From a virus (taxonomy: Duplodnaviria > Heunggongvirae > Uroviricota > Caudoviricetes): a DNA stretch of 64,000 bases. The stretch is taken from the IMG/VR virus record IMGVR_UViG_3300042154_004306. One strand, given 5' to 3'. A program made the position numbers and the translations under genes. Of the stretch, positions 12,802 through 58,510 are shown in pieces. The notes under the pieces were generated by a model, which saw nothing but the letters and a program-made list of their open reading frames with translations, made no database searches and was not told the origin of the DNA. Within the stretch, counting starts at the first letter, position 1, and the number at the start of each line of letters is the position of its first letter.

Positions 12802-13918
12802 GGTACGCCATGTCAAACACGGTTTCGCTAAAATAGCTATTGATCCATTGATTAAAATCACGTGGACTGTACTCAGAGTCCTTGGAATGAATGAATGAGT
12901 ACATATCATTGATGTCCTTGATTCTTTGAAGCTCTTTCATCTCTTCAGTTGAAGAATATTTCTTTTTTAGGTAGTCGATTGCCTTGTTCCACAGAAAAAC
13001 CGAGTAACCTTGCTTGATGAAGTTCATCATCTGTGTCTTACCTGCCTTATCTCGGTCAAACACCACTCGAGTTGCGCCCTTTGCTCCTAAATTAGCAAGA
13101 ATGCTACGTGCTTTTGACGCACCAGAAGTTGCAATACAATTCTCAAGCAACATCGAATCGAATTGACCCTCAGTCATTAGAATCGGCTTGGTGAAATCAA
13201 CGTTCAAGATATTAAAGTAGTTATTCAAGAAGTTAGCGTCCTCAACCAGGCCCTTATTCAATCCACGTTGAGCAAAAATAATTGAGAGATCGGTGTATGA
13301 CTTAATGATGTATTTTCGATCAGTGTTTGGATCTAGACTACGAATTGCAAATCCAAGCAGCTTACCGGACCTGCGATCAAAATTAAATATGTAGACTTTA
13401 TTATCGCTTGCATCAGTGTAGAGACAGTCTCCGAAATCCTCGATTAGGTTAAGATCCCTGGATTTGATGTATTGAAATGCAGTAGAGGTTTCCGGAACGA
13501 GGTCAAGTCGCTTTAATGAGAATCGGTTAATGATATCTGTGATGGTCACAAGCTGACTCGTATCAGAGGTTAAGAATCGTAAAAGCTGGTTCTCAACCCG
13601 TTTTACTTTCACAGGTTGATAATCTCCGTCCAGTAAGAAGCTTGGTAACATGATGCTGTGTTCCTTACTCATTCTGGCAATGAATTCACCGATTGGCAAG
13701 TACGCCATACACCCGTCATTAAAACACTTGTAGGCACCAGTGTCTAAATACAAGTTACCACGTTTCTTGGAGACCTTTTTATCAGAGTCTCCACAGATTG
13801 GACACGCAAAATTTAGCTTACGCGAACTATGCTCTTCAATCTTTTGTTTTTCAGGCACATCATGAAATCTCTTACGTAAGAGAATTTCCAAGAAGGCTGA
13901 TATTTCCTCAATTTTCAT
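12797..13918 (-). CDS. g61: DNA primase (T4 gp61-like)
   Basis: Zn finger CPICGDS...YKCFNDGC; TOPRIM motifs TEGQFDSM and FDRDKAG. Confidence 0.9.
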   Translation of the reverse strand: MKIEEISAFLEILLRKRFHDVPEKQKIEEHSSRKLNFACPICGDSDKKVSKKRGNLYLDTGAYKCFNDGCMAYLPIGEFIARMSKEHSIMLPSFLLDGDYQPVKVKRVENQLLRFLTSDTSQLVTITDIINRFSLKRLDLVPETSTAFQYIKSRDLNLIEDFGDCLYTDASDNKVYIFNFDRRSGKLLGFAIRSLDPNTDRKYIIKSYTDLSIIFAQRGLNKGLVEDANFLNNYFNILNVDFTKPILMTEGQFDSMLLENCIATSGASKARSILANLGAKGATRVVFDRDKAGKTQMMNFIKQGYSVFLWNKAIDYLKKKYSSTEEMKELQRIKDINDMYSFIHSKDSEYSPRDFNQWINSYFSETVFDMAYL

Positions 13919-15536
13919 CAGTTACTTTTATCTTCTTTTCAGCCTTTGGTTTTATTGCACTCTTATAGGCTCTATCAAGATCATATCCCATTTTGTAATA
14001 GTCCTTGCGCTGTTTTATGGCCTTTTCGTACTTATCAGTTTGTAGCCAAGCGCCTTTTCCATCAGGTGTATTCATGAGTTCAGACCAGCCATTTTCAACT
14101 AAATACGCTCGCATCACTTCAATTGGAATCGCGAAAGGATCTGATACTTCAATTCCTAATTTCTTTGCAACTCGATCTCTGTACTTAGTAAGTTCGTGTT
14201 TAGGCACAATTACCGTATTCAGACCAAATTTTGAAATGGATGAAATGTAGGTTGAGAAAAGATCTGGAGGAATCTGTCGATCAGGGTCACCTATGAAGTG
14301 TTGACAGCTTTCCGGAATTTCAGAGTAGTCTAGAGTAACTGAACTAACTGCATACAATGGGAATGTTTCTTCCGGTGTGAACTCCTTGCTGCGGCTTCTT
14401 GATTTAATTACATCGACCTTGCGAGCAAGTTGAGGAGTCAATTCAGAATAGCCCATTGCGACTAAGAGTTTATTAATAGGCTCAACAAGTAATCTAAAGA
14501 ATTGCTGGTCTCTATCCATCGGTACTGCAAACTCTTCAGGAAAAGCACCGGGTGCATAGGCAAAAATATCAAAATTATGTTCGTTAGTAGCAGCATAGTA
14601 GAATTTAATCTTTGAACCACTACGAATGAGATTGTACTTTTGGTTATTGGTCTTTTTGATTAGGTGATTGTGGTAAGCGGCGGCTCTGCCGTAAATTGGC
14701 ATTCCTGTTTCAAGCTGAAGCGGATTTAATTTCTTAACGTAATCTTCGTAAACTCTAACTGAAAAGTTAAAGGCAATCTCATCAATCGTAAGTTGATTGC
14801 ACTCTTCTTTAAGAGCGGCGAGCCAAGGAATTAGGTCTCTTTCAAGGTCTAGGCTGTAACCCAAGTCTAGGAGTTCCCAATAGAGATCCTGTAAATGCTT
14901 ACGTGCCCAAATTGGATATGATGCCTGAATTGCTTCAAGGCCCTTAATGATTAGTGATTCCTTGTCTAGGAGTCTTTCATGCTTATTATCTTTGTATGAA
15001 ACTTTTAGCACGTATTTTTTCTTTGCAAGCCAGATTCCAGCACGGGATAGATTCTCAAGCTCAAAGTTCTGACGGTTATCCGTGTTGAAATGAGATGCAT
15101 ACTTTTCAAAAGCCTGTTCAAAATAGTGTTTTAATCGATTACGATTGATTCCCAAGCAAAATTCAAGAGCTTCATGCTCAGATAATTCTAAACCTTCGAC
15201 TGATCGTATTGCAAAGTCAAAACACACGTAAACCGAGTCAGTATCAGTGTAAACAGCAGCTTCTCTCTCAATCTGATTGACCTGCATACCTGATATTCCA
15301 AGCTTTTCATGAAGCTCTGTGTCTAAATGCCACTTACTCGTGAAATAGTGGTTAACCGCCTTGATTGAGAACTTGATTAGATCTTGGCCTTGCAAAGTGA
15401 TTGACTGTGCAATATCATTGTTATGGAAATAAAAATATCGATTGCCGAAGGCTCCATAAAATGAGTTAATCAAGATCTTTATTGCATTCTGCTTTAGGTC
15501 GAGTGATTTGATTTGTTGTTCAAGTTGTTTTGACAT
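13908..15536 (-). CDS. g43: Family B DNA polymerase, C-terminal half (gp43B-like) with C-terminal extension
   Basis: Starts just before motif B (KILINSFYG); motif C YTDTDSVY; KKKY; KGLE. No exonuclease domain or motif A. Confidence 0.9.
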   Translation of the reverse strand: MSKQLEQQIKSLDLKQNAIKILINSFYGAFGNRYFYFHNNDIAQSITLQGQDLIKFSIKAVNHYFTSKWHLDTELHEKLGISGMQVNQIEREAAVYTDTDSVYVCFDFAIRSVEGLELSEHEALEFCLGINRNRLKHYFEQAFEKYASHFNTDNRQNFELENLSRAGIWLAKKKYVLKVSYKDNKHERLLDKESLIIKGLEAIQASYPIWARKHLQDLYWELLDLGYSLDLERDLIPWLAALKEECNQLTIDEIAFNFSVRVYEDYVKKLNPLQLETGMPIYGRAAAYHNHLIKKTNNQKYNLIRSGSKIKFYYAATNEHNFDIFAYAPGAFPEEFAVPMDRDQQFFRLLVEPINKLLVAMGYSELTPQLARKVDVIKSRSRSKEFTPEETFPLYAVSSVTLDYSEIPESCQHFIGDPDRQIPPDLFSTYISSISKFGLNTVIVPKHELTKYRDRVAKKLGIEVSDPFAIPIEVMRAYLVENGWSELMNTPDGKGAWLQTDKYEKAIKQRKDYYKMGYDLDRAYKSAIKPKAEKKIKVTDEN

Positions 15537-36224: not shown

Positions 36225-37028
36225 ATGATAACTTCAAATAATGAAATTGTAAAAGATCAAAGCGGTGCAGAATTAATTGTTACCAAGTACTTGGGAGAGG
36301 TGGTTGATGTGAAGGATCCATTGAGAGAAGGCCGTTGCCGGGTCAGGGTTTTCAGCATATTTGATAATTTGCCGGTTGAGGATATTCCATGGGCAACACA
36401 AATGAAAAAGCCCACTTTCTTTGGGCAGTATGCAAAGGCTGGATCAATTTCAATTCCCAAGAAAGGTTCAATTGTTGAAGTTGTTTTCAATAATGGAAAT
36501 CTCTACTCACCAGAATACGGTCAAATCCAAGAGATTGGAGACGATATCAAGGAGGCTCTGCAGTCTAGCACGGATTACGAGTATGAGGGAGCTCACTATA
36601 TTCTATTTGATGGAGATGAACATATCAAAATATACTTCACTAAAGGTAGGGGACTAACCTTGGAAATGAAGGACTCCTACTTGACAATTGATCAAAATTC
36701 AAAGATTGAAATTTATCATAAGGACGGACTGTCATCAATGGAATTTGATGGAAACGTTATCAACGTACAAAGTTCATCTCAAGTGAACGTCACGTCTAAT
36801 GTAGTAACCCTAGAGGGTCAAACCGTAAATATTAACGGTCAATTAACGAATATCGGTGCAAATGCAAAGGCCGAACATGCCGTAATGGGAAATACTCTAT
36901 TTGAAATATTGGTGACTCTAGCCTCGGCACTCGATGCTAAAATGCCAAGCACACCTGGTGCAAACTCAGCATACGTTACTTCTATGTTACCTAAATTATT
37001 ATCGGGTACCGTTACGGTAGGAATGTAA
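36225..37028 (+). CDS. g5: Baseplate spike gp5-like protein (OB fold + beta-helix, no lysozyme)
   Basis: YLGEVVDVKDPLREGRCRVRVF...IPWA...SIPKKGSIVEVVF. Confidence 0.85.
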   Translation: MITSNNEIVKDQSGAELIVTKYLGEVVDVKDPLREGRCRVRVFSIFDNLPVEDIPWATQMKKPTFFGQYAKAGSISIPKKGSIVEVVFNNGNLYSPEYGQIQEIGDDIKEALQSSTDYEYEGAHYILFDGDEHIKIYFTKGRGLTLEMKDSYLTIDQNSKIEIYHKDGLSSMEFDGNVINVQSSSQVNVTSNVVTLEGQTVNINGQLTNIGANAKAEHAVMGNTLFEILVTLASALDAKMPSTPGANSAYVTSMLPKLLSGTVTVGM

Positions 37029-37850
37029 GTCGAAAAGATCTTCGCATTCAGTTAATACCAACTCCTTATTTAAACCGCTTAGTGAATCTCCAAAATGAAT
37101 TGCTCTAAATCTGAGCTCGCCTGTTTTCTTTGCATGAGTAATATCCTCAGCAAGAGTCGGCAAGTCTTCCCTTTTTCTAAAATATCGACTTGAGGCTTGG
37201 TACTTGCCGAGCAGGTCTTCCCTAACCATTTCCATGTGGTGCATCGTTATTAGATCACGTTCAAAAACTCTGGATCGTGTGTAAGAATCGTCTGTGATTC
37301 CACGAGTTGGATCGACATCAGAGAACATGAACTGCACCGAATGATGGCGACTCGTTGGACCAATCTCATAAATGAACGGCACCTTGAATCTGGAGTAACC
37401 TTGATGTAGAGTTGGAGTCAAGTAATTTATGTAGCGAACTGCAGTTGCCTGTAACTTATCTTGTATGATTTGGCGCTTGGCCTCTTCAAACTGTTCCTTA
37501 ATATAGAACTCATCCGCATCCATTGAGGTATAATGAGTTGCTCCAAGTTCAAGAGCTTTATCTAAACAACTCTGCCTCTTATCACATTCGTATTTTTTAG
37601 CTCGGATCACATCGTCCGGTTTAGTTAGGGATGACGGGGCAAATTTTGTGAATTCCATTATTACATCAATTAGGCCATTCTCCTTGAGACTCTCTAGTGT
37701 GGGTACCAGCAATGGTGAACACTGAGTATTTCCCCATGATACTGTCTGGTAAGAGACAATCACGATATCGACACATTCTCTAATTGATCTAATTGAGGCT
37801 TCTAGGGTTTCAAGCCCATCAAAGACTACGTAACCTACTGCAAGTTTCAT
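36999..37850 (-). CDS. GT-A (GT2-like) glycosyltransferase
   Basis: LEASIRSIRECVD, MDADEF. Confidence 0.75.
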   Translation of the reverse strand: MKLAVGYVVFDGLETLEASIRSIRECVDIVIVSYQTVSWGNTQCSPLLVPTLESLKENGLIDVIMEFTKFAPSSLTKPDDVIRAKKYECDKRQSCLDKALELGATHYTSMDADEFYIKEQFEEAKRQIIQDKLQATAVRYINYLTPTLHQGYSRFKVPFIYEIGPTSRHHSVQFMFSDVDPTRGITDDSYTRSRVFERDLITMHHMEMVREDLLGKYQASSRYFRKREDLPTLAEDITHAKKTGELRFRAIHFGDSLSGLNKELVLTECEDLFDLHSYRNGTR

Positions 37851-37858
37851 TTACGTAA

Positions 37859-38386
37859 TTATTTTTTAATGACTAAAACTAAATCATCCCATCTGCCCTT
37901 AAGATGTCTCAAATCAAACACTTCAAATTCTAAGCCAGCTGGGATTGTTGATATTAATCCATTTAATACTTCTGTACTAGAAATGTCTTCAATCACAAGT
38001 ATTCCTCCAGGTTTGACCTTCGGTAAATACAGTTCAATGCAACATTGTTGACTGTGGCCGCAATGAGGACCATCGTCTATTATTATATCGAAATTGTCAT
38101 GAAATAGGTCGGCTGTGATTTGAGAATAAGCATCGGCAATGATTTGCGTTATTCTATCATCTTCAATGTCTACTCTCTTGAACGTTTCGAGTCCATATAT
38201 TTTGGCATTTGTGAAATATTCTTTCCACATGAATAACGAGCCTCCCTCATAGGTGCCGATTTCTAGAATAGAGTTAGCAGTCTCTCTGTATTTTTTAAAA
38301 AGGTCCTCATATACGTGCTCAATATAGCTGTGATTGGTTCCTTTGTCACTAGTAGTTGGATCATATATTTCCAATAAAGTTTTCAT
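37859..38386 (-). CDS. Class I SAM-dependent (sugar O-) methyltransferase
   Basis: SDKGTNHSY, ILEIG...GGS, DIIIDDGPH, GGILVIED. Confidence 0.85.
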   Translation of the reverse strand: MKTLLEIYDPTTSDKGTNHSYIEHVYEDLFKKYRETANSILEIGTYEGGSLFMWKEYFTNAKIYGLETFKRVDIEDDRITQIIADAYSQITADLFHDNFDIIIDDGPHCGHSQQCCIELYLPKVKPGGILVIEDISSTEVLNGLISTIPAGLEFEVFDLRHLKGRWDDLVLVIKK

Positions 38387-38971
38387 TTAGTTATTATAAT
38401 TATTTTTAAATTCATCTTCACTTTTAAGATTTAAAATTTCTAACTTGAGGCTATCAAAGACAGAATATGATATTTCTGGACCGACTTGGATCGGGGTCAT
38501 ATCTCCTTCTCTGAGTACGCCAACTCCGTGATCATCGTCTAGTGTACAAATGCTCCAACCTGACTCAGATCTAATTTCGCAAACTGCTTTCCAAACCGTT
38601 CCATTTAAAAATGGATTTGTTCCATGATTTTCGTCAAGCGGTCGACAATCGTGAAGAACAATTGAACCGCCTGGGTTCAAACAGGATTTAGCATTTCTAA
38701 TGTCCGTTATTACTTGTTCGTAGTTATGATCACCGTCAATAAAAATTATGTCGAATTTTTCTGAGTTATGATTAAAAAATTCGTCACTGTACAGTTTTTT
38801 GATTCTAGGATCTTCATGCTGGTGGATTGGTTCAACTCCGACCTTGTGTTGACAATTTATTTTTTCCCAAGCAACACCATATTGCAAGCCTATTTCTAAA
38901 TAGGTTTTATAGTTAAACTTTTCGATTAAGAAGTTGATTACATCAAACCTCATAAATTTCATTTGGTTCAT
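38387..38971 (-). CDS. Class I SAM-dependent methyltransferase (Methyltransf_24-like)
   Basis: YLEIG, FDIIFIDGDH, LNPGGSIVLHD. Confidence 0.85.
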   Translation of the reverse strand: MNQMKFMRFDVINFLIEKFNYKTYLEIGLQYGVAWEKINCQHKVGVEPIHQHEDPRIKKLYSDEFFNHNSEKFDIIFIDGDHNYEQVITDIRNAKSCLNPGGSIVLHDCRPLDENHGTNPFLNGTVWKAVCEIRSESGWSICTLDDDHGVGVLREGDMTPIQVGPEISYSVFDSLKLEILNLKSEDEFKNNYNN

Positions 38972-39021
38972 TTGTTTATAGATTTTTTTCTTGAAAATTT
39001 TATTTTCATCAGTATTTTTAT

Positions 39022-39723
39022 TTATTCTAAAAAATATCCGTCTAGTGTAACAGAATTTGGCAAATCGGTTAGATTAACCTCAGGAATTGGTAACCACGGC
39101 TTAAATGTAAATACTTTTTCTGGATTACCAATAAATGCAGCCCACCAACAAAAAGTGCTATTACTACAAATAATTTTTTTGTGTGATGCTATTAATTCAA
39201 AGTCGTCCTTAACTGAACCGCTATGGACTATTGGATTATAGTCTTTAAGTGCAGTAATATATTCGTGGTCAATCGGATTCATAACTAAGTGTAGGTTTTC
39301 ATAAGATTCACTATCTAAAATTTTTTTATACCAATCTGGGTGTATTCTATGTGCTCTACCATAATCGCCGGCTCGTACATGAGCAACAATATCATTGGTC
39401 TCGCGTGTAAGATATTGAGTTTTTAACCACGATCTAATAATTGATCTATTTGGTAAATATCGATTAGATTGTTGAAAGTATCCACTAAAACATACATTTG
39501 CATCAATTGGTAAATGAAATAAATTATCTATAGTAGGTTCATCAATTGTTAAATCAGGTTCACTAAATATTGCACCAGGTAATGGATCAATTATACCGAC
39601 AATAGATTGATGAATCCATGGAGTTATAAGAGCACGATTGTGAGCCTCCGCGTATAATCTAGCAATTGAATATTGAAATAAATTATTTCCAAAGTTACCG
39701 CCGTATGCGATAGTTACACTCAT
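39022..39723 (-). CDS. GT11 alpha-1,2-fucosyltransferase-like
   Basis: GNFGNNLFQY, GYFQ, HVRAGDY, NSTFCWWAAF. Confidence 0.85.
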   Translation of the reverse strand: MSVTIAYGGNFGNNLFQYSIARLYAEAHNRALITPWIHQSIVGIIDPLPGAIFSEPDLTIDEPTIDNLFHLPIDANVCFSGYFQQSNRYLPNRSIIRSWLKTQYLTRETNDIVAHVRAGDYGRAHRIHPDWYKKILDSESYENLHLVMNPIDHEYITALKDYNPIVHSGSVKDDFELIASHKKIICSNSTFCWWAAFIGNPEKVFTFKPWLPIPEVNLTDLPNSVTLDGYFLE

Positions 39724-40523
39724 AATTCTAATAGTTTTTTAGTATATAAATAATCATCGAGTAAATTCATAGAAGTAAGAGCATCTAACCATACTGGATT
39801 ATTAATATCAATAAAGGTTCTAACGTCATTATGTGATTCAGTTAGGTATTTGCCCATTTCTAAAATAAATCGGTCTTTATCAGTTTCATACAGAGTCTGT
39901 TGAGCTAAGCCGGCCTCACTATTCCAAGTTAGTCTATGCTGTTTTATTTTCTTATACCAAATATCAGATGACATGTATCCAATATCTATAAATCCAGCAG
40001 ATTCCCCATAGGTATCAGGGTTTGGTGACAAATACGCTCCATCACCAATATACCGATTTATTGCATTTATCTCAATTAAATCAGCGCCCCAATTAGTAGT
40101 GTATGTCTCAATATATAATTTAACGTGCTGTGTAATAAATGAAATTGCTGGACCAGTTGGATTAGCAATCCACTCCAATATATACTGTTTACCGGCTGGG
40201 GTTATTTGAGTATCCGCTTGTAATATTAAAATATAGCCAGTATTTACCTTTTTCTTAGTTAATTCAATACACATATTTTGAGCGATTGCAATATCATCAG
40301 GTTGTCTAATTTTAAAATTAATGATTTCAATTGTAATACGTGGATCCTTTACTAACTGTTGTATAATATCATGACTAATTTGATCGCCACAATATATAAA
40401 AATATAGTCTATAAAGTCTAGTTTTTGTATAATTTCATAAATCGGATAATTAATTATTTCCTGATTATCAACGTATATATTACAAGAAATCATAATTAAA
40501 TTAGATTTTTTACAGTTTCCCAA
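39720..40523 (-). CDS. Putative GT-A glycosyltransferase
   Basis: AQNMCIE...LILQADTQ; island context. Confidence 0.55.
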   Translation of the reverse strand: MGNCKKSNLIMISCNIYVDNQEIINYPIYEIIQKLDFIDYIFIYCGDQISHDIIQQLVKDPRITIEIINFKIRQPDDIAIAQNMCIELTKKKVNTGYILILQADTQITPAGKQYILEWIANPTGPAISFITQHVKLYIETYTTNWGADLIEINAINRYIGDGAYLSPNPDTYGESAGFIDIGYMSSDIWYKKIKQHRLTWNSEAGLAQQTLYETDKDRFILEMGKYLTESHNDVRTFIDINNPVWLDALTSMNLLDDYLYTKKLLEL

Positions 40524-41143
40524 ATCACTTTATCTTCCTCAATTATGTCAGTATAGTTAGGTAAATTAAAAATACTACGGCTACCTCCATTAATATGAAT
40601 TACCTCCATTTCTGAATAGATATTTAATGAGTAATTTAATTTTTTAAGTTTACCAAAAATCCAGTCATCTCCAAACCATAATTTTAAGCCAGTTGGAATT
40701 GGATAAACTGCTTTACACATTTCTTTTGATAAAACGATCATAATTCCAGGAAAACCTCCAGGAATTTCATCAACGGTATTAGGCGGATTAACTGAAAATT
40801 CATTAACTGGATTTGGCAGCATAATGGTTTTTTCATAATCAATATCAGTTTCTCTAATTTTATTTAGAATTCCAGGCTTTAAAACCAAATCTGAATTTAA
40901 TATGATTAAGTAATCGTGGGCTGAGGTTAAAAACTTTTCCATTATTTGATTCCATGCCGGATTAACAAATACATTAGTAGAATTAGTTAAAACATTTTTA
41001 CCTGAAATTATTTCTTTAATACCGATTGTTGAATTATTATCAATAATAAAAACTTCATCAGCTTGTGGTTCTACTGCGTTAATACATCGGTAAACACAAT
41101 CTTCACAATAAATTACTGGAATTCCAACTAATATACTTCTCAT
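40496..41143 (-). CDS. GT2 glycosyltransferase
   Basis: IIDNNS, NVFVNPAWNQ, ILNSDL, WFGDDW. Confidence 0.8.
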   Translation of the reverse strand: MRSILVGIPVIYCEDCVYRCINAVEPQADEVFIIDNNSTIGIKEIISGKNVLTNSTNVFVNPAWNQIMEKFLTSAHDYLIILNSDLVLKPGILNKIRETDIDYEKTIMLPNPVNEFSVNPPNTVDEIPGGFPGIMIVLSKEMCKAVYPIPTGLKLWFGDDWIFGKLKKLNYSLNIYSEMEVIHINGGSRSIFNLPNYTDIIEEDKVIWETVKNLI

Positions 41144-41159
41144 AAGTTAAATTATTTTT

Positions 41160-41894
41160 TTATGATATTATTTCTTTATTAAAATTTGGATGGGCTTTCA
41201 AAACATCAGGCAGGGTATTTTTATCGAAAGCAACGGCTTCTCCCCATACTGTACACGTTGGATGTATATCTTTATCTCCAGGTTGCCAAGCGTAATAAGT
41301 ATTATCTAACCAGCCTGGTTTTATTTCGTTTTTATGCCCGTGAATTTCAAATTTGTAATCCATTATTTTTTTAGATTGAGCATATCCGAAATGATAGATT
41401 GTTCCATTAATAGATTCTTCAATTTGATTATTTTTATTTATGTTAAATAGTCTAGCTGGTTGAAACCCATCATAACATGCCCAATCAAAAGATTTCCAAA
41501 AGTTGACAAAACCGTTTACGTTTCGCCTCCAAGACGTACCTTCATACGTTTCCTTGATGCATTGTTCCAAAGAGGAAGGTTCCCAAACTTCATCAGCATC
41601 GACCGCTAGCATAACATCATACCCTGGAGCAAAGTTCCAAGCCAAACCTCGATGTTGACCTTCATTACCTAAGCCATCAGTGTTGATCCAATGGACTTTA
41701 GTTGAGGCAGCTTGTGCAATTTCACGAATTTCTGACTCGGTCTCTGGGCAAACCAATTGGGTTCCATAGCCATAACTGGGCTTGGGAGTGTATAGAATTA
41801 CAATTTTATCAACGTGATCGTTAATTGATTTTATTGAAGCATCCAAATATTCTGCTCCATAATGAATTGGATAGTAAGCTAAAGTCTTTATCAT
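41160..41894 (-). CDS. GT2-like glycosyltransferase
   Basis: YLDASIKSI, AVDADEVW, IYHFGYA. Confidence 0.75.
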   Translation of the reverse strand: MIKTLAYYPIHYGAEYLDASIKSINDHVDKIVILYTPKPSYGYGTQLVCPETESEIREIAQAASTKVHWINTDGLGNEGQHRGLAWNFAPGYDVMLAVDADEVWEPSSLEQCIKETYEGTSWRRNVNGFVNFWKSFDWACYDGFQPARLFNINKNNQIEESINGTIYHFGYAQSKKIMDYKFEIHGHKNEIKPGWLDNTYYAWQPGDKDIHPTCTVWGEAVAFDKNTLPDVLKAHPNFNKEIIS

Positions 41895-42583
41895 AGTTTT
41901 TGTTTTATTTTTTCGAGGGCTAAGTCCATTTTATTTTTTGCATGAAATCCAAAAACGGTGTGGAGTCCATGGTCAGAAGTCATTTCATTTTCAACCGAGA
42001 AGCGAGTTGCAACTTCGACTGGTGCAATCTTAAGACCGTTTGATTCAAGCACTGATTTTTTTGAACTTACGATGAAGGCGTCTTCATTCTGACCTGCCCA
42101 ATCTGTGAAAGTTGAAGTTAATTCCAATAGTCTTTTGCTTCTTAACGAAAATCCGCCGTTTCCTACTTGATGGCCAATCGTTGGCCAACCCATGTAAAGT
42201 GGCCATGGAGAACCTATCCAATCGTAATTGTAAAAATCATCATCCCAAAGTTCAGGATTTACAACGAATCCATCGTCCTGAAAAATGAGACAGTATTCAG
42301 AATCTACAAATTTTACTAAATCAAATATGCAAAATTTAGAGTATCCTTCAATGCTCATTTGATCGATTTTAGTGAAATTTAGTCCTGGAATTTCCGGGTC
42401 GACCGTTCCGAAAAACTTAATTTCGTAAAAATCAATAGTCGACATCATGTAGTTTATGATGATTCGGTATTTGTCGATAATTGCCGGCTCCATTTGACGG
42501 CCGTCTATGCAGATCGCGGTAACTTTATGTAAGTCAAGTTTCATATTATTCAGTTGGGCTAATAAATTTATATGGAGGTTCAA
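41891..42583 (-). CDS. DUF5672-like GT-A fold protein
   Basis: YCLIFQDDG, WDDDFYNYDWIGSPW, VGNGGFSLRSK, EDAF, FGFH. Confidence 0.75.
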   Translation of the reverse strand: MNLHINLLAQLNNMKLDLHKVTAICIDGRQMEPAIIDKYRIIINYMMSTIDFYEIKFFGTVDPEIPGLNFTKIDQMSIEGYSKFCIFDLVKFVDSEYCLIFQDDGFVVNPELWDDDFYNYDWIGSPWPLYMGWPTIGHQVGNGGFSLRSKRLLELTSTFTDWAGQNEDAFIVSSKKSVLESNGLKIAPVEVATRFSVENEMTSDHGLHTVFGFHAKNKMDLALEKIKQKL

Positions 42584-43211
42584 TTCGAACAGTTGAATTC
42601 GAATATGTTCTAAAATCAGTCAGGTGTAAATGTTTGGTAATGAGGCTCTTTGCTGGATTTATGACACGGTATTTGCTAACGGATAACTCATGAGCAAGTC
42701 GATTATCACAGCCAGGAATCCCAATCTTAAACTTAAAGTTTCCGCGCTTTATTTGATTAAGAAAAAACCAGGAGTCTTGACTATCCCAACAGTCATGCAA
42801 TTCTGCGTCAATCGTAAGATCTGAAGTAAGAGTTAAATTCCATCTAGATAAAGCAATTGCAATATTCTTTCCAATCCTAGAAAAGGCCTTAGAGATAACA
42901 GCTTCATCGAAGATGATGTCACCGTTTGCGACGATTATTAAGCAGTTAGAAGCCCTTTTAATCTTTCTTTTTCTATAACGTTGGGATATTGTAAAAGCTT
43001 CATGATAAGTAGGTCGGGCCTTTAATATTTTTATCACAATTTTTGGATCATTTAATATGTCTATATTCGATGGAGGAGTTTCACAGAGTAAAATTATTAC
43101 ATCAATCGCTGGATTATTTATATTGTGTTCTAAACATATTAGGAATTCACGATTTCGAAGATTCGATATAGATTTAAAATACGGTATTGTTAAAATACAG
43201 TTAATCATCAT
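42546..43211 (-). CDS. GT-A-like hypothetical protein
   Basis: IVANGDIIFD, ALSRW, SQDSWFF, GIPGCDNRLA. Confidence 0.6.
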   Translation of the reverse strand: MMINCILTIPYFKSISNLRNREFLICLEHNINNPAIDVIILLCETPPSNIDILNDPKIVIKILKARPTYHEAFTISQRYRKRKIKRASNCLIIVANGDIIFDEAVISKAFSRIGKNIAIALSRWNLTLTSDLTIDAELHDCWDSQDSWFFLNQIKRGNFKFKIGIPGCDNRLAHELSVSKYRVINPAKSLITKHLHLTDFRTYSNSTVRIEPPYKFISPTE

Positions 43212-44097
43212 TTTTACCTAAGGCCTGTATTTTTGAAAAGAGAAAGTCGTCCGCTGATTCAAGGCTTTTTACTATTGCTAGATTCTCTTGTATGTAAGGT
43301 AATTTAGATTCATATAATTCTGAGGTTAACGAGTCGACTCCCTTAAATTCATCCCAAAAGATTATTCCTTCTGGATTAAAATCTTCACTAACTTTCCTAG
43401 TTCCCCAATAAATTGGAACCGTTCCAGTAGCAAAACAGTCTGTTATTTTTTCAGTGTAATACTTATCGTAAACCGCATTTTCAAAAACTACTGAAAATTT
43501 ATATTCTTTCAAGGCTGGCAATTTCGATCTCCACCAGTCGCCAGTTGGCCCAGAACCTTCACCTATTCTTTGAGAGCCGTGGGCTCCTCCAAAAAGATCT
43601 AGGTGATTCTGTAGTTGAGCTGCGACCTGTAACCTAATCATGTGGCCTTGGGTTCTAGCCTTTGGCGAACATATCATTGAACAGACCTTAGTCTTTTCGT
43701 AAAGCTTCATCTCTTCCGGCTTTGTCCACGGTAAATTGGAACCAGGTGGGCAGTAAACAAAAAATGGATCACCTAAAAGGGATTCATCGCATGTAAATAT
43801 TTTGTGAAAGCTCTTTTTGTATTTTGGCAAATCATTTAATATTTTTGAATGGATTGAATCACAAATTTGCCTAGATTCACATAGCCATCCGTATTTTCCA
43901 ACGGCAGATGGAGTAAGGAGCCCTTGTTCAATTGAATCGTCTATATAGACTACAGTATTTGAGTCTGAGGTTGTCCACTCAAACTTAGCGGTTGATAAAT
44001 TTGAACATGATGAGTATTCGGCTGGAAATGGAAGTCCGATTCCTTTAATGTGCATATAGTTTATCCCAATTTTTTTGTAAATTTGAATTGGCGTCAA
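43201..44097 (-). CDS. GT10 alpha-1,3-fucosyltransferase-like
   Basis: YKFSVVFENAVYDKYYTEKITDCFATGTVPIYWG is the GT10 signature. Confidence 0.9.
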   Translation of the reverse strand: MTPIQIYKKIGINYMHIKGIGLPFPAEYSSCSNLSTAKFEWTTSDSNTVVYIDDSIEQGLLTPSAVGKYGWLCESRQICDSIHSKILNDLPKYKKSFHKIFTCDESLLGDPFFVYCPPGSNLPWTKPEEMKLYEKTKVCSMICSPKARTQGHMIRLQVAAQLQNHLDLFGGAHGSQRIGEGSGPTGDWWRSKLPALKEYKFSVVFENAVYDKYYTEKITDCFATGTVPIYWGTRKVSEDFNPEGIIFWDEFKGVDSLTSELYESKLPYIQENLAIVKSLESADDFLFSKIQALGKNDD

Positions 44098-46150
44098 TGT
44101 TTATTAAAACCTCATTTTCAGATAAAGAGGCTTGGCCATAATAAATCGCGCCACCTGACTCAATTTTTAAACGAGTAATTTCGTCACTTGATTGAGTTAA
44201 CTGTTGGATTGGCAAGTATATCTTTAGTCGACTATGATTTGAAAAATTAAGTAAAGCAGAATAGGCTAACTTAATTGGATCAGGTTCAGACTCAGATATT
44301 TTGATCACAACAGTTTTGACAGATTTTGATAGATTCCATCTAGCCTGATGAGTTAGGCTCTGAACTGCTTGGTGGATTTTGTCCTTTCCTGGAATTTCAC
44401 TATTACCGTTATTTATGTATTTGCCATTTACAAAATCCAGCCAATTATCAGAAAGTAAGAATACACTATATTGTCCATTTAATTTCTCAAGAACATAGTG
44501 TTTCAGAGCATCATGATCTAGTTCAGGAATTCCTTTCTCAAACGCGGAATTGCAGTGTACGATCCACTCTCTTACGATTTTAAAAGCATCCTCTGTGTAA
44601 TTTAAAAAAACCGGAGATGCCTGTATTCCATTCATATCTCCGCTGTGAGTAGCTAATCCAATATCTTGAAAAAGATTATTGAATTCGCTGAACGGCTCCC
44701 TAAAATCAGTATCGCAATCCATCCATATAACGCCTCTTTTATGAGTCATCATTTTAGCCAAAATGAATTCAGGTTTCATGAGACAGTTTGCTGCATATCC
44801 GCCTCGAGGAGAGAGCTCAGAAATATCAAAACTAATCTTAAACTCGTCACATTTCTTAATGAGCTGCATTGCAAACGCTCGGTAATATCCACTCGATGTA
44901 AAATCAGAGTAATAACTAATCAGTAGTTGAGATAATGATTTTCGTTCTTCTGATTTTTTAATTTTTGATAAAAATTGAAAATTAGAAGTTTTGGTTTCTA
45001 CCGCAGGTGCTTCAGTTAGGTCGACTGAATTTGATTGAGGTTTTGTCGTTTTATTAAATGATGATATTGAATTAAGGTAGCTGTGTCGAATTTCCGTATC
45101 AAATCCTTTGGTCAAGGGCCCGGTCGAACTAGATAAATCGTAGACAATGTCCCAAGTCTTTCCAGAAGTTTCCAATTCATCTAACGATCGTATCATCTTA
45201 TCCGAGTCAATTGATGAAATTTGATTAGAAAATTCCACAAATAGAGGATCACTTGACTTCATGTTTCCAACTATCCAATATTCATGACAGCTACAGTTTT
45301 CAATTATTTCTAAAATGCGAGCCTTAGTAGATTGGATTTCGCCGTTTGGAAAATACTTAAATAGAATGGTTGGATTAAGTTCGGTTAAATCTGGTGAATC
45401 TGATTTTATATCTTGCCTGAATGCTGCAAATATAGTATCGGTCGCTTTTGTTTTTATCTTAGTTAGGGTGGATACTTTAGGAAGCCCAGTCTTTCGGACC
45501 GCAAACATCTGCTTGTGAATGTCTTGAGAGGTTGAAGTTTCTCTAAAATTTAAGGCAAGCAGCCGATCTACAAGTAATGGATCTGACTGATCCGGGTTAT
45601 CGAAGACTACAAACTTGTCATAGATTGAATCTGAACTGAACCGTACTCCATTTGTTAGAGTGTAAGTGAACTTTTTAATTCCAATATCGCTAACTAGATC
45701 TGGTCCAGTAATAGCAGCAGATATCAGTTTGGAAGTAGCCTCAGTATTAACGATTGTGAAAAGATGAGGGCATATTAAGCCGTTGTGCGTTCGATAAAAA
45801 ATATTTCGGTCAGAATATGCTGGAATTGATTTAAGTATGAATAGGTGAGGATCGAACACAGTAACGATCGCGTCCATGTAGGAAAGCGCACTAAATATGA
45901 AAGGGTCGATTTTGTACTGATTGGATTGTGAGTTTTCCTTTTTTATTTGTTGAGACATGTAGTTTGGAAAAACTCTAGTTACTTTACATTTTTTAGATAA
46001 AAAAATTACAAGCTTCAAAGGCACTTCAATTTGAGAACAAATCACAAGTTCATCGTAATCTGTCTGACTGTTCCTAAGGATAGACTCGACATTCTCTAGA
46101 AAAATATCCTGTACAGGATTTGAATAATATGTAAATAATACGGTTTTCAC
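44045..46150 (-). CDS. Multidomain nucleotide-diphospho-sugar transferase (GTG start)
   Basis: C-terminal CLMKPEFI...VIWMDCDTDF...ASPVFL...DHDAL (GT77-like); degenerate GT-A-like N-terminal region. Confidence 0.65.
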   Translation of the reverse strand: MKTVLFTYYSNPVQDIFLENVESILRNSQTDYDELVICSQIEVPLKLVIFLSKKCKVTRVFPNYMSQQIKKENSQSNQYKIDPFIFSALSYMDAIVTVFDPHLFILKSIPAYSDRNIFYRTHNGLICPHLFTIVNTEATSKLISAAITGPDLVSDIGIKKFTYTLTNGVRFSSDSIYDKFVVFDNPDQSDPLLVDRLLALNFRETSTSQDIHKQMFAVRKTGLPKVSTLTKIKTKATDTIFAAFRQDIKSDSPDLTELNPTILFKYFPNGEIQSTKARILEIIENCSCHEYWIVGNMKSSDPLFVEFSNQISSIDSDKMIRSLDELETSGKTWDIVYDLSSSTGPLTKGFDTEIRHSYLNSISSFNKTTKPQSNSVDLTEAPAVETKTSNFQFLSKIKKSEERKSLSQLLISYYSDFTSSGYYRAFAMQLIKKCDEFKISFDISELSPRGGYAANCLMKPEFILAKMMTHKRGVIWMDCDTDFREPFSEFNNLFQDIGLATHSGDMNGIQASPVFLNYTEDAFKIVREWIVHCNSAFEKGIPELDHDALKHYVLEKLNGQYSVFLLSDNWLDFVNGKYINNGNSEIPGKDKIHQAVQSLTHQARWNLSKSVKTVVIKISESEPDPIKLAYSALLNFSNHSRLKIYLPIQQLTQSSDEITRLKIESGGAIYYGQASLSENEVLINIDANSNLQKNWDKLYAH

Positions 46151-54526: not shown

Positions 54527-54552
54527 AAAAGGGGCTTAATGCCCCTTTTTTA
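54527..54552. terminator. Bidirectional intrinsic terminator
   Basis: AAAAGGGGC-TTAAT-GCCCCTTTTTT between convergent genes. Confidence 0.85.
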
Positions 54553-54937
54553 TTGTCTCTACTCCAGAAAGTTCTCCAATTTCAAAATCTCCGTCTATTA
54601 ATTTAGGAACGAATTCTATTGTTGCATACGCAGTATTTAGAAACTTGATTGTGTTGTTTATATTGCTGACACTGAGGCCGGCATTAACGTAAATTATTCG
54701 ATTGTACTTACGATTCCTAACATTGATTGCTTTATCAATTAATTTCTTGATCTCATAGTTTATTAGGAATGCCTGGATTTTATTTGGCACAAGAATTTCA
54801 TGGTCGAACTTTTCCTTTATTATTTTATTTACATTCAGTAAATAATCGCATTTCTGCTTTTTATTAAAAGCCTGAATGAATTGTTTTTGATCTCTTACAA
54901 AAACAATTTCAAGCCTTCTTTCTAATATATCGATCAT
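54536..54937 (-). CDS. Hypothetical protein
   Basis: 133-aa ORF coupled (ATGA-type overlap) to the deaminase gene. Confidence 0.7.
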   Translation of the reverse strand: MIDILERRLEIVFVRDQKQFIQAFNKKQKCDYLLNVNKIIKEKFDHEILVPNKIQAFLINYEIKKLIDKAINVRNRKYNRIIYVNAGLSVSNINNTIKFLNTAYATIEFVPKLIDGDFEIGELSGVETIKKGH

Positions 54938-55407
54938 AGGGTTTCTAGGTCAATTTTTTTAACTTCAATGCCAGCCCTTCTTAAGAAGTCAAGGCCGGCA
55001 ATATCTCGGTATTCTTCTAAATACACAACTCGCTTGATTCCTGCCTGTAAAATTAATTTGCTGCAATCTGTGCATGGAGAGTAAGTAATATAGAGAGTAG
55101 CTCCGTCGCTACTTTGTGTTGATTTGGCAACCTTGGCTAAGGCATTTGACTCGGCATGCAAAACATACCATTTAGTTTGATATTCTTTAAATGAGCCATC
55201 CTCATGGTTTATCGCAATCTCACATTCATTTTCAAAACCGGAAGGGGTTCCATTGTAGCCATCAGCAATGATTGTGTTATTCTTTACGATTAGGGCTCCA
55301 ACCTTTTTACGAATTGCATGAGAAAGACCTGACCAGGTTTGGGCCATCTTGATGTAGGCAATATCGATTAGGTGTTGGCGCTGTGCTCTAGTTAAATTAA
55401 ATGACAT
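54934..55407 (-). CDS. cd: dCMP deaminase
   Basis: KVGALIV, GYNG, HAESNAL, SPCTDC. Confidence 0.95.
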   Translation of the reverse strand: MSFNLTRAQRQHLIDIAYIKMAQTWSGLSHAIRKKVGALIVKNNTIIADGYNGTPSGFENECEIAINHEDGSFKEYQTKWYVLHAESNALAKVAKSTQSSDGATLYITYSPCTDCSKLILQAGIKRVVYLEEYRDIAGLDFLRRAGIEVKKIDLETL

Positions 55408-56290
55408 CGTTATCTTCTTTTAGTTTTTCAAAAATCCATTTCAAAAGATCGTTATCTTGTTGAAAAAGTATAAGTTCATCAGTTTTTCCAGTGGACGCTG
55501 CGAACACAATATTAAAATCTTGACTTGAAGATCCGTCTATGTCTATCAAATCAGTAGTTATCGAAGGTAATGTAACTGGAATAAAATCGGAAGCAAGCAT
55601 TCTTTGAGCTAGATCATAATGCCTATCGTAAACATGATACGAATTTGCAACATGAGTATAGGTACCAAGTTCAAGATCCGGATAAATTTCCTTTAGGTGA
55701 GCATGGATCTGCATTTGTAAAGAGCAAAAGAATGCAACATCAGTTGGAGTACCCCAAATTGCATCATTACTTCTCATGTAGACGCTCATGTATAACTTAT
55801 TTTGACGAATATGCAGATTTGCATACATGGTACATACAAAATCCTTATTGGTCAAATACTGGTGAGCGGGTTTGTTAAAATGAAGAATCGCCTGTCTTGT
55901 ACTAGAATCATTCATTAAACTTTGAATTGCCCATTGGTACTGAGTAAACCTGTATTGGTTCTTTTCATTGAAAATCAGGTTGCCGTATGCTGAGTTTGCT
56001 GTGCCATCTGGGTTTTGAATGGTTTCCCAGAACTTTGCCCATTTTGAAATGAAAGCTACATCATTTCGGCCAGCATAGTACCATAAAAATTCGGCAGCAA
56101 TATACTTTTGCTGAGAACCTCTAACTTCATTATCATATAGACACTGAGTTGGATCCTCAACTACTATCGCAACATCAAGTAATTCTTTATTTGTTGTGCC
56201 CCTAGCATTGTTAACCATGCCGTTTGCCAATAGATATTCTATTGAATGTTTATATGCTTGTGCAAAAGTGTGCCCTGTAAATGTAATCAT
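55397..56290 (-). CDS. g42: Thymidylate synthase homolog with cytosine-specific Asp (dCMP hydroxymethylase gp42-like)
   Basis: DFVCT catalytic Cys, RSNDAIWGTPTD (Asp at the Asn177-equivalent position), NSAYG, HVYDRH. Confidence 0.8.
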   Translation of the reverse strand: MITFTGHTFAQAYKHSIEYLLANGMVNNARGTTNKELLDVAIVVEDPTQCLYDNEVRGSQQKYIAAEFLWYYAGRNDVAFISKWAKFWETIQNPDGTANSAYGNLIFNEKNQYRFTQYQWAIQSLMNDSSTRQAILHFNKPAHQYLTNKDFVCTMYANLHIRQNKLYMSVYMRSNDAIWGTPTDVAFFCSLQMQIHAHLKEIYPDLELGTYTHVANSYHVYDRHYDLAQRMLASDFIPVTLPSITTDLIDIDGSSSQDFNIVFAASTGKTDELILFQQDNDLLKWIFEKLKEDNDVI

Positions 56291-56345
56291 AATTCGGAAA
56301 TAATACTATTCAAATATAATACTAAGAAAATGAAAAAAGGTTAGC

Positions 56346-58007
56346 CTAAACGATTGTTAGGTCAGAAAAATGATCCGTATTTTCAACCTGGATCTTGGTA
56401 TCAAAATACTCTTCAGGTAAAGGATCATGAGAAATCACGAATACTGTCATATTGTACTTTTTGGCAAAAGTTTTCAAAAGGTCAACTACTCTAAATATTG
56501 AATCAACGTCTAATGATGAGAATACCTCGTCCAAGAAGAGAAGATTCACCTTGTTGTGCTTTAATTTAATTAGCTCTAATATGCAGAGTAAAACAATTAG
56601 ATTCATTTTCTTTTGTTCACCAGCGGATAATGAGTCTGGCGAAACTTGCATGCCTAAGTGAGTTATTATTGGATTGAACTCTAGATCAAACTCGAATGAA
56701 AATTTAAACTCTAAGACTTTAGCAGTCTTTAGTATTTTTTTATTCAACAATGGAATGATTTGACTCATTAGCATCTGTTTCATACCGTTATCTGATAAGA
56801 TCATTTCCATCTCTTGGGAAACTTTTAACTTTTCCTGTCTTTCAGATAGACTAGCGCTAGATGTCTGGATCTCTGCCTTGATATTGTTAATGACCTCAGT
56901 TAAATGCGTGTCTGATGTCCGGTTACCCTGTCTGCTTAGATCAGCAATTTCACGCTTAACCGAAGTTATTTGAGCATCAATTTGATAGTACTTGCCCTTT
57001 ACTTCGCTAGATTCAGTTTCTACTAACGATAAGTCTTTTTCATGAGATTTAATTCTTTCTGAAATTGCAGGAAACGCTGATTCCTGTTCAGTTTTTTTTG
57101 CAACAAGCTTATCTTTGATTTGAGAATGAACCTCATCAGTTAAATCAGAAAGACAATGCGGACACTTGTTCTTATTGTAAATGTCCAACTTCTTTTGAAT
57201 TTCAGAAATGTTAACTCTAACTGTGCTCAGTTTATCCTGTTCAGCTCTAACACTCTGCCTAATTTCAGAAATTTTACCTGAAAAACTACTTGCTACGGTA
57301 TGCGCCTCTTTTTTATCAGTAGCTAACTGCTCAAGTGCCTCGTTTAATTCTGAAATTTTTGCATCATTACTCGTTTTTATTTCAGACTTTAGGGCTTCAA
57401 GTTGAGAGATTGAGGATTCTAATAGTCGTTGGTTACTCGAAATAGCTGATTCAAGAGGTGCAATATCGCCCTTAATCTTTTTAGACTCTTCCTTTGCAAC
57501 CTTAGCCATATCATTAACAATATCTAGTCCAAATATCTTATCGATGATTTGACGTTTATCGGCTGGACTAAGTTTAACAAAGCTCTTAAAATCATTAACT
57601 GATAAGCTAATAGTATTTGAGAAAACGTTAAACGGTATCTTAGTCAATTCGTCTTCAATAAATTCATCGACTCTACGTTTATCAGGCAAGTTATATTCAA
57701 CTCCATCAATCGAAAGCTTGGAAAAGTTAGGTTCAAGGCCTCTTTCGATATCAATAAGTTGACCATTTCCGGTAACGAATTTAATTTGAGTATAGGCATT
57801 CTTGTTGATTCGATTAGGGATTTCCTTGGTCTTGCGGATTGCAGATTTACCGTATAGTGACACAGTCAAAGCATCCGAGATTGAAGATTTGCCACTACCG
57901 TTTTTACCCTGAACTAGGATTAGTCGAGGCTCGTCTGTAAACTTGAATGTTTGTAATTTATTGCCGTATGAGCAGATGTTTCTAAAGGAAAATTCTTGTA
58001 TCTTCAT
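56346..58007 (-). CDS. g46: Rad50/SbcC-like ATPase (T4 gp46)
   Basis: GKNGSGKSS, CPHC hook, LSAGEQ, LFLDEVF, VISH. Confidence 0.95.
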   Translation of the reverse strand: MKIQEFSFRNICSYGNKLQTFKFTDEPRLILVQGKNGSGKSSISDALTVSLYGKSAIRKTKEIPNRINKNAYTQIKFVTGNGQLIDIERGLEPNFSKLSIDGVEYNLPDKRRVDEFIEDELTKIPFNVFSNTISLSVNDFKSFVKLSPADKRQIIDKIFGLDIVNDMAKVAKEESKKIKGDIAPLESAISSNQRLLESSISQLEALKSEIKTSNDAKISELNEALEQLATDKKEAHTVASSFSGKISEIRQSVRAEQDKLSTVRVNISEIQKKLDIYNKNKCPHCLSDLTDEVHSQIKDKLVAKKTEQESAFPAISERIKSHEKDLSLVETESSEVKGKYYQIDAQITSVKREIADLSRQGNRTSDTHLTEVINNIKAEIQTSSASLSERQEKLKVSQEMEMILSDNGMKQMLMSQIIPLLNKKILKTAKVLEFKFSFEFDLEFNPIITHLGMQVSPDSLSAGEQKKMNLIVLLCILELIKLKHNKVNLLFLDEVFSSLDVDSIFRVVDLLKTFAKKYNMTVFVISHDPLPEEYFDTKIQVENTDHFSDLTIV

Positions 58008-58009
58008 GA

Positions 58010-58510
58010 TTAAAAGTATGTAAGTTCGCGGTTTGCAGCGATATCCTGAGTTGTATAAAACTTATACAACTTAGAATCACTATCGTATTCCCAAGTAATG
58101 TTAGGCATGTCGCTTCGACGATAAAGAGACCCGAATCCCAACAGGATTGCATGCGAAACCACACTCAATAGTTTAGTTGGATTGGCAACCTCAATCAGAA
58201 GCGCTTTAAATTGTTCAGTAGTTATTAGGCCTCGGTCCAGTCTCTCCTGTAAATCAAGATCGGCAATCTTAGCTGCGAATTGTCTCTCCTTTTCAATGCC
58301 GTCTGGGTTAATGAATAGTCTTTGACCTAGGCTTGCATCGTTCTTGTCAATTAGGATTTGAATCCTTTGGCTTACTGGCAACCAGGCACAAAATTCAACG
58401 ATTGAATCTCGATATAGTGGAGCATTCGTAAATACGCCAAACTCCTTATCGTTGATTGGCTTTACGCAAATGGTATTTAAGATTTTTGGAGCTTTACTCA
58501 TGTGATCCAT
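58010..58510 (-). CDS. SET-domain protein with a divergent active-site motif
   Basis: FGVFT...IVEFC, LGFGSLYRRSDMPN (NHS replaced by RRS), FYTTQDIAANRELTYF. Confidence 0.7.
   Translation of the reverse strand: MDHMSKAPKILNTICVKPINDKEFGVFTNAPLYRDSIVEFCAWLPVSQRIQILIDKNDASLGQRLFINPDGIEKERQFAAKIADLDLQERLDRGLITTEQFKALLIEVANPTKLLSVVSHAILLGFGSLYRRSDMPNITWEYDSDSKLYKFYTTQDIAANRELTYF

Follow-up and report, generated by a model that had tools for sequence, protein, structure and literature searches.

A predicted T4-type dCMP hydroxymethylase gene coupled to a dCMP deaminase gene in an uncultured lake jumbo phage

Replacement of cytosine by hydroxymethylcytosine is a known anti-restriction strategy of phages. 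The thymidylate synthase (TS)-like enzymes that modify pyrimidine nucleotides differ at a few diagnostic positions. In E. coli ThyA numbering dCMP is selected by N177D, a product other than the methyl one is correlated with L143D/E, and 5-hydroxy-dCMP synthases are recognised by D169N (PMC13326640). In MilA, K133 and A176 set the ribose preference (PMC5175136). Of 149 deaminases on modified contigs, 104 lie no more than 3 kb from a TS, and a supply of dTTP from 5mdCTP, bypassing ThyA, has been proposed for phages of the Xp12 type (10.1101/2024.12.05.627091). Thus the strategy, the residue markers, the pairing of an Asp-type TS with a deaminase and the cytosine-first route to thymine are all known or published and not new. 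Here we report a phage locus with a 297-aa TS-fold enzyme, which is likely a T4-type dCMP hydroxymethylase accompanied by an ordinary deaminase. Because the predicted chemistry is that of T4, the surprise is low.

The locus and its surroundings

The stretch of 64,000 nucleotides that was analysed (the window) is part of a T4-like lake phage. It belongs to a linear record of 180 kb (G000) which is 67% complete. Complete relatives have about 270 kb and are syntenic with G000, which is without the part corresponding to 167-271 kb of the relative G002. The window phage is an uncultured lake jumbo phage of roughly 270 kb.

The open reading frames of 297 and 157 aa were both present (Table 1), with an 11-nt overlap between the end of the hydroxymethylase gene and the beginning of the deaminase gene. 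They lie in a replication block with gp46, gp47, a helicase, UvsX and polymerase, in the order gp47, gp46, the 297-aa TS-fold gene, deaminase, a 133-aa orphan and a hairpin. A promoter-like element occupies the 55-nt gap after gp46. The gene overlap, this conserved box upstream and the terminator after the third gene suggest that the hydroxymethylase and the deaminase are co-transcribed.

Table 1. Positions in the window of the features discussed in the text
Feature	Position	Strand	Remarks
Predicted dCMP hydroxymethylase, T4 gp42/MilA class, 297 aa	55397..56290	(-)	residues, Pfam, fold
Predicted dCMP deaminase, 157 aa	54934..55407	(-)	GYNG, HAE and PCxxC motifs; no other gene of this kind in any genome
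133-aa protein specific to the clade and without known family, third gene of the unit	54536..54937	(-)	overlaps the deaminase gene at ATGA
Bidirectional terminator-like hairpin of 9 pairs	54527..54549	(.)	closes the unit against a convergent gene
Conserved promoter-like element, TAAMC, 11-16 nt, TAGTA	56320..56343	(-)	putative function
gp46/SbcC-like recombination ATPase	56346..58007	(-)	fixed upstream neighbour
Asp184 codon (E. coli N177, T4 D179)	55739..55741	(-)	cytosine selection
Asp150 codon (E. coli L143, T4 D145)	55841..55843	(-)	non-methyl product
Asp176 codon (E. coli D169)	55763..55765	(-)	Asn expected here in 5-hydroxy-dCMP synthases
P-loop dTMP/dNMP-kinase-like protein, 202 aa	21140..21748	(+)	candidate hm-dCMP kinase

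The unit was conserved in the clade. gp46 preceded the hydroxymethylase in 67 of 67 loci with room for it, and the deaminase followed within 100 nt in 78 of 78. The arrangement persisted, at times with small inserts, in relatives whose gp46 is 43% identical. The 133-aa protein likewise keeps its place after the deaminase throughout the clade, with identities of 50-99%.

Four of seven genome matches to TAAMC...TAGTA were located upstream of open reading frames, where 0.2 were expected, with a pattern drawn from these same loci. Besides the copy in Table 1 it recurs upstream of 46242 and at two more sites, and may be a middle promoter of the phage. Late boxes (ATAAATA) were found upstream of 35 open reading frames (2.4 expected). 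A Bacteroidota TAnnTTTG promoter box is present upstream of the unit, but was rejected as it occurred at 5 of 36 loci with no genome-wide enrichment; a sigma-70 scan gave chance-level results. Between gp47 and gp46 lies a degenerate SET-domain protein (58010-58510 (-), PF00856, E 2e-4), which is fast-evolving and has other small genes in its place in distant relatives. The family-B DNA polymerase is apparently split into two distant genes at 13908-15536 (-) and G000 C1:50081-51457.

Active site and predicted product

The 297-aa enzyme matched PF00303 (E 7e-22) and the deaminase PF00383 (E 4e-22). By sequence the closest solved structures were those of MilA (1e-18) and T4 gp42 (4e-14), followed by E. 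coli ThyA (1e-7). The AlphaFold model (pLDDT 93) also had MilA as top match with a TM of 0.79. Identity to the closest enzymes of characterised function is low (about 28%), and a TS tree gave no resolved join with T4 gp42, its deep nodes being open and its branches long.

The four motifs listed in an earlier note on this DNA were all found, i.e. NSAYG at residues 99-103, DFVCT at 150-154, RSNDAIWGTPTD at 173-184 and HVYDRH at 219-224. The catalytic set of the TS fold is present with C153 as the nucleophile and E67, Y102, R173, S174, H219 and Y221. Alignment with enzymes of known product showed identity with T4 gp42 at the equivalents of E58, W80, Y94, L143, C146, H147, R166, S167, D169, G173, N177, H207 and Y209, a pattern unlike that of Xp12, RB69 gp48, SPO1 gp29 and ThyA. 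The three diagnostic residues are D150, D176 and D184 compared to D145, D171 and D179 in T4 gp42. They set the protein apart from the Xp12 methylase (N162), the RB69 hydroxylase (N186), the SPO1 dUMP hydroxymethylase (N194) and ThyA. D184 aligned with D179 of T4 gp42 and N177 of E. coli ThyA, as stated in the earlier note; the Asn of canonical ThyA and dUMP hydroxymethylases is absent there.

D184 and D176 were invariant in 121 of 121 aligned homologues and D150 was found in 120 of them. Contigs of runs X5 and X6 from other studies had no change at the diagnostic codons. Compared with G002 the enzyme gene differs at 147 third codon positions versus 58 and 26 at the other two.

The combination of D150 and D176 narrows the product from 'hydroxymethyl, methyl or related', as first proposed, to hydroxymethyl. 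The predicted product is 5-hydroxymethyl-dCMP and not the methyl or hydroxy derivative, L143D being a correlate of product type, no proof. R132 and S174 at the positions of K133 and A176 in MilA point to a deoxy substrate. By analogy to T4 gp42, C153 would add to C6 of dCMP, methylene-THF would supply the carbon at C5 and D150 would admit water to yield 5-hydroxymethyl-dCMP.

An enzyme of the RB69 type, i.e. a flavin-dependent dCMP hydroxylase leading to 5-hydroxycytosine, would also have N177D and L143D/E. Yet all such enzymes tested carry D169N, while the corresponding D176 is Asp throughout the homologues, and with 22% identity RB69 gp48 is the farthest removed of the dCMP-type references. 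We consider this reading extremely improbable.

Nucleotide supply and entry into DNA

Each genome has one deaminase. That of the window shares 53% identity with the enzyme of cyanophage S-TIM5, 56% with its counterpart in the ThyX-bearing crAssphage cr271_1 and 29% with the Xp12 enzyme; G029 falls within the range of 53-56%. By sequence it appears closer to ordinary dCMP deaminases than to the Xp12 enzyme.

A second, canonical ThyA distant from the locus was present in all six relative records that are near-complete (90% or more) and in G008, G011 and G043. Since four of the six are one near-identical strain, they represent three lineages. The second TS of the relatives has Leu143, Asn177 and the LPPCH and PFN motifs and is encoded in the genome part missing from G000. 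A search for a separate thyA or thyX and for a dCTPase, as suggested in the earlier note, was thus positive for ThyA in the near-complete relatives and for a gp56-like enzyme in G000 (see below), but yielded neither ThyX nor a second ThyA in the 67% of the genome that G000 covers. No contigs of near-identical strains were long enough to bridge the missing part. G021, which has both ThyA and the glycosyltransferase (GT) described below, comes from a sample that also contains a 97%-identical TS, with no tie between G021 and the strain of that TS. No DHFR was detected in the genomes tested.

Three side observations concern the thyA region. The canonical ThyA is in two pieces in G036 (L382/L389) and has a large in-frame insert in G038 (L383/L390), where the frame comprises 631 aa. 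Next to thyA, G002 C1:223222-229469 contains a repair cluster of a UvsE-like UV endonuclease, an Fpg/Nei-like glycosylase (both judged by eye) and a 2OG-Fe(II) oxygenase.

The data bear on two ways in which the deaminase could act on a modified nucleotide. In a module of the Xp12 type the TS-like enzyme would make 5-methyl-dCMP and the deaminase would turn part of it into a thymine nucleotide. Gene order and overlap are the same as in Xp12, modified contigs typically show the pairing, and selectivity for 5mC is polyphyletic (10.1101/2024.12.05.627091), which limits the power of sequence to argue against such a module. On the other hand, Xp12 has N162 and P166 where D150 and T154 are found here, all near-complete relatives possess a canonical ThyA, the DHFR which Xp12 has in cis was not found, and the deaminase resembles the ordinary enzymes rather than that of Xp12. 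We regard such a module as decidedly unlikely. Alternatively, hm-dCMP might be deaminated to hm-dUMP, with hydroxymethyluracil taking the place of some of the thymine. The tight coupling in 78 of 78 loci and the conversion of 5hmdC to 5hmdU in vivo by certain TS-linked deaminases would suit this idea. However, ThyA is kept in every near-complete relative and needs dUMP, for which the genome has only the one deaminase, and this is of the ordinary type. Formation of hydroxymethyluracil is therefore very unlikely.

The simplest reading is the arrangement of T4, where the deaminase would be an ordinary branch point at which some of the dCMP is diverted to dUMP, the substrate of a separate canonical ThyA. 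Hydroxymethylase and deaminase genes would then be coupled because of their common substrate. Of the earlier interpretation, the dCMP-specific enzyme, modified cytosine and possible glycosylation were upheld in view of D150, D176 and D184. The cytosine-first route to thymine or hydroxymethyluracil was not supported; it does not fit the canonical Leu143/Asn177 ThyA of the near-complete relatives, an ordinary-type deaminase and the missing DHFR, and is not needed here.

Two kilobases past the window G000 encodes a gp56-like dCTPase/dUTPase (C1:49583-50062, E 3e-23 to T4 gp56) with predicted dCTP activity, and three of three near-complete relatives have a homologue. Instead of this dimeric type of enzyme, G008 and G031 carry a trimeric dUTPase at the gp56 position (C1:139459-140028 and C1:54617-55138, respectively), and both retain the Asp-type enzyme. 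Removal of dCTP is thus not evident clade-wide and substitution may be partial. A gp56 is also encoded by JSE, an RB49-type phage whose DNA is not known to be modified. For both reasons gp56 is not diagnostic of hydroxymethylcytosine. PRA-PH/MazG as a stand-in dCTPase was rejected, as the only MazG-like gene, of 98 aa, is private to G031.

A phage kinase would phosphorylate 5-hydroxymethyl-dCMP; the TMPK-like protein of the window is a weak candidate for this enzyme, and G002 has a guanylate-kinase-like gene that might also serve. The gp56-like enzyme would convert dCTP and dUTP to the monophosphates. Polymerase would then incorporate hydroxymethylcytosine into DNA, perhaps only in part, and most restriction enzymes would be blocked. 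Neither a C5 DNA methylase nor a carbamoyltransferase was found in the genomes tested.

Restriction-site words were counted against a Markov expectation in G000, G002, G007, G008 and G031. Four other large phages, without the Asp-type enzyme in the parts covered, served as controls; they have other hosts and a lower GC content than the clade (29% versus 36-43%). The test was devised post hoc, after seeing the data, and the clade genomes are related. C-containing 4-bp palindromes amounted to 0.98-1.03 of expectation in the five clade genomes versus 0.74-0.77 in the four controls. Of 56 C-containing 6-bp palindromes in G000, CATATG (1 seen, 27.5 expected) and GATATC (27 seen, 58.8 expected) were the lowest, and both were also the top two depleted words in G002 and G031. 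CATATG was counted 0 times in G002 (29.6 expected), 0 times in G007 (31.8) and 5 times in G031 (23.5), and was normal in G008 and more distant relatives, while GATATC was low in the controls, too. The sole CATATG of G000 is located at C1:119388.

NdeI and EcoRV were the only non-degenerate cutters of C-containing 6-bp palindromes in a panel that fully cut T4gt (5hmC) DNA; glucosylated T4 DNA is cut by NdeI as well (PMC7653180). Loss of NdeI and EcoRV sites with other C sites kept is the expected outcome of selection if modified C blocked the other enzymes. T4 itself fits poorly, with 0.80 for 4-bp sites in the part tested and no avoidance of CATATG, and the near-absence of CATATG could be due to an NdeI-type enzyme of a common host or to a nuclease of the phages. 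The word statistics indirectly support modified C, not its kind.

The enzyme might also make hm-dCMP or hm-CMP that enters DNA only partially or not at all, i.e. with partial substitution or a role in free nucleotides or RNA like MilA. MilA is the best match in sequence and fold, gp56 is replaced in G008 and G031, and no DenA/DenB-type nuclease was identified. The deoxy-type residues R132 and S174, the position of the gene in the replication block, the gp56 of G000 and the word statistics argue against this reading, which we judge quite unlikely. Taken together, cytosine is probably replaced by 5-hydroxymethylcytosine in the DNA of this phage.

A candidate for further modification is a conserved core trio of overlapping genes among structural genes (L092:2694-4941, G002 C1:211694-213941), which encode an FkbM methyltransferase, an MBD4-like HhH-GPD glycosylase and an unclassified GT-B protein. 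The G002 GT-B protein has 352 aa, no Pfam family and a predicted GT-B fold (pLDDT 94), and was present in four of four near-complete records. It is beside the FkbM methyltransferase in 72 of 80 loci and beside the glycosylase in 31 of 80. In fold comparisons T4 AGT and BGT reached Z 14.5 and 14.0, with other GT-Bs higher (up to Z 16), and language-model neighbours included BGT clusters at 0.95. Sequence profiles of the family matched neither T4 BGT/AGT nor vipetofem BGT, and PF09198 was unmatched in six genomes, so that the apparent likeness to BGT/AGT lies in fold and language-model features only. Tentatively, the trio might act on hydroxymethylcytosine in DNA and yield a cytosine with both glycosylation and O-methylation, a base not described so far, whose deamination product the glycosylase would repair; we hold this to be unlikely. 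The GT is unlinked to the hydroxymethylase, about 100 kb away, and the phage has many glycan genes, which may serve virion fibres. Separately, 36999-46150 (-) harbours about eleven glycosyltransferase- or methyltransferase-like genes that are much reduced in G002 and more likely concern virion glycans than DNA.

Comparison with known systems

A widespread clade of lake jumbo phages, with more than 400 matched IMG/VR stretches, probably carries modified cytosine, which bears on host restriction, virome recovery and enzyme mining. Selective loss of NdeI and EcoRV sites is a sequence-only signature that could flag genomes with modified C, and the GT-B protein is a candidate for a new DNA glycosyltransferase family with an O-methylase as its partner.

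The active-site signature is that of T4 gp42 (PDB 1B5D/1B49), which acts with gp56, Cd, Td and alpha/beta-GT. The clade parallels T4 in its predicted hydroxymethylase, a gp56-like dCTPase, a dCMP deaminase, the separate ThyA of the near-complete relatives and a protein of predicted GT-B fold. However, identity to T4 gp42 is 28% and the window enzyme is 50 aa longer. Hydroxymethylase and deaminase genes are coupled here and unlinked in T4. In contrast to T4, DHFR is missing from the clade genomes tested, gp1, DenA, DenB and a member of the BGT/AGT family could not be recognised, and one sub-branch has lost gp56.

The CMP hydroxymethylase MilA (PDB 5JNH, 5B6D; PMC5175136) shares Asp at the 143 and 177 positions, but prefers CMP, serves antibiotic synthesis and differs at the two ribose-setting residues. 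RB69 gp48 and DLP3 gp80, the 5-hydroxy-dCMP synthases (PMC13326640), share the TS fold, N177D and an acidic residue at 143, whereas their diagnostic D169N is missing here. In the Xp12 and mSCD-B5 modules (10.1101/2024.12.05.627091; PMC8670742) an N177D TS homologue likewise adjoins a PF00383 deaminase. Yet the product in Xp12 is 5mC and a DHFR is encoded in cis, while residues of the hydroxymethyl type, a canonical ThyA elsewhere and a deaminase of ordinary type are found here.

The 462-kb phage LR756500.1 (145603-158478, L239) has a 48%-identical Asp-type enzyme that is without a deaminase neighbour; a 418-aa protein, BGT-like by eye, is encoded 1.4 kb away. The nearest cultured homologues (33-37% identity), with products assigned by annotation, are Bacillus phage G gp319 and those of Enterococcus phage vipetofem and Xanthomonas phage Xp15. 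All three have the same Asp/Asp/Asp pattern, and in phage G and Xp15 a deaminase is close by, too. The homologues adjoin an alpha-GT in phage G, a beta-GT in vipetofem and a carbamoyltransferase in Xp15, in contrast to the distant candidate GT of the clade. Because these transferases need a hydroxyl group, their presence counts in favour of a hydroxymethyl product.
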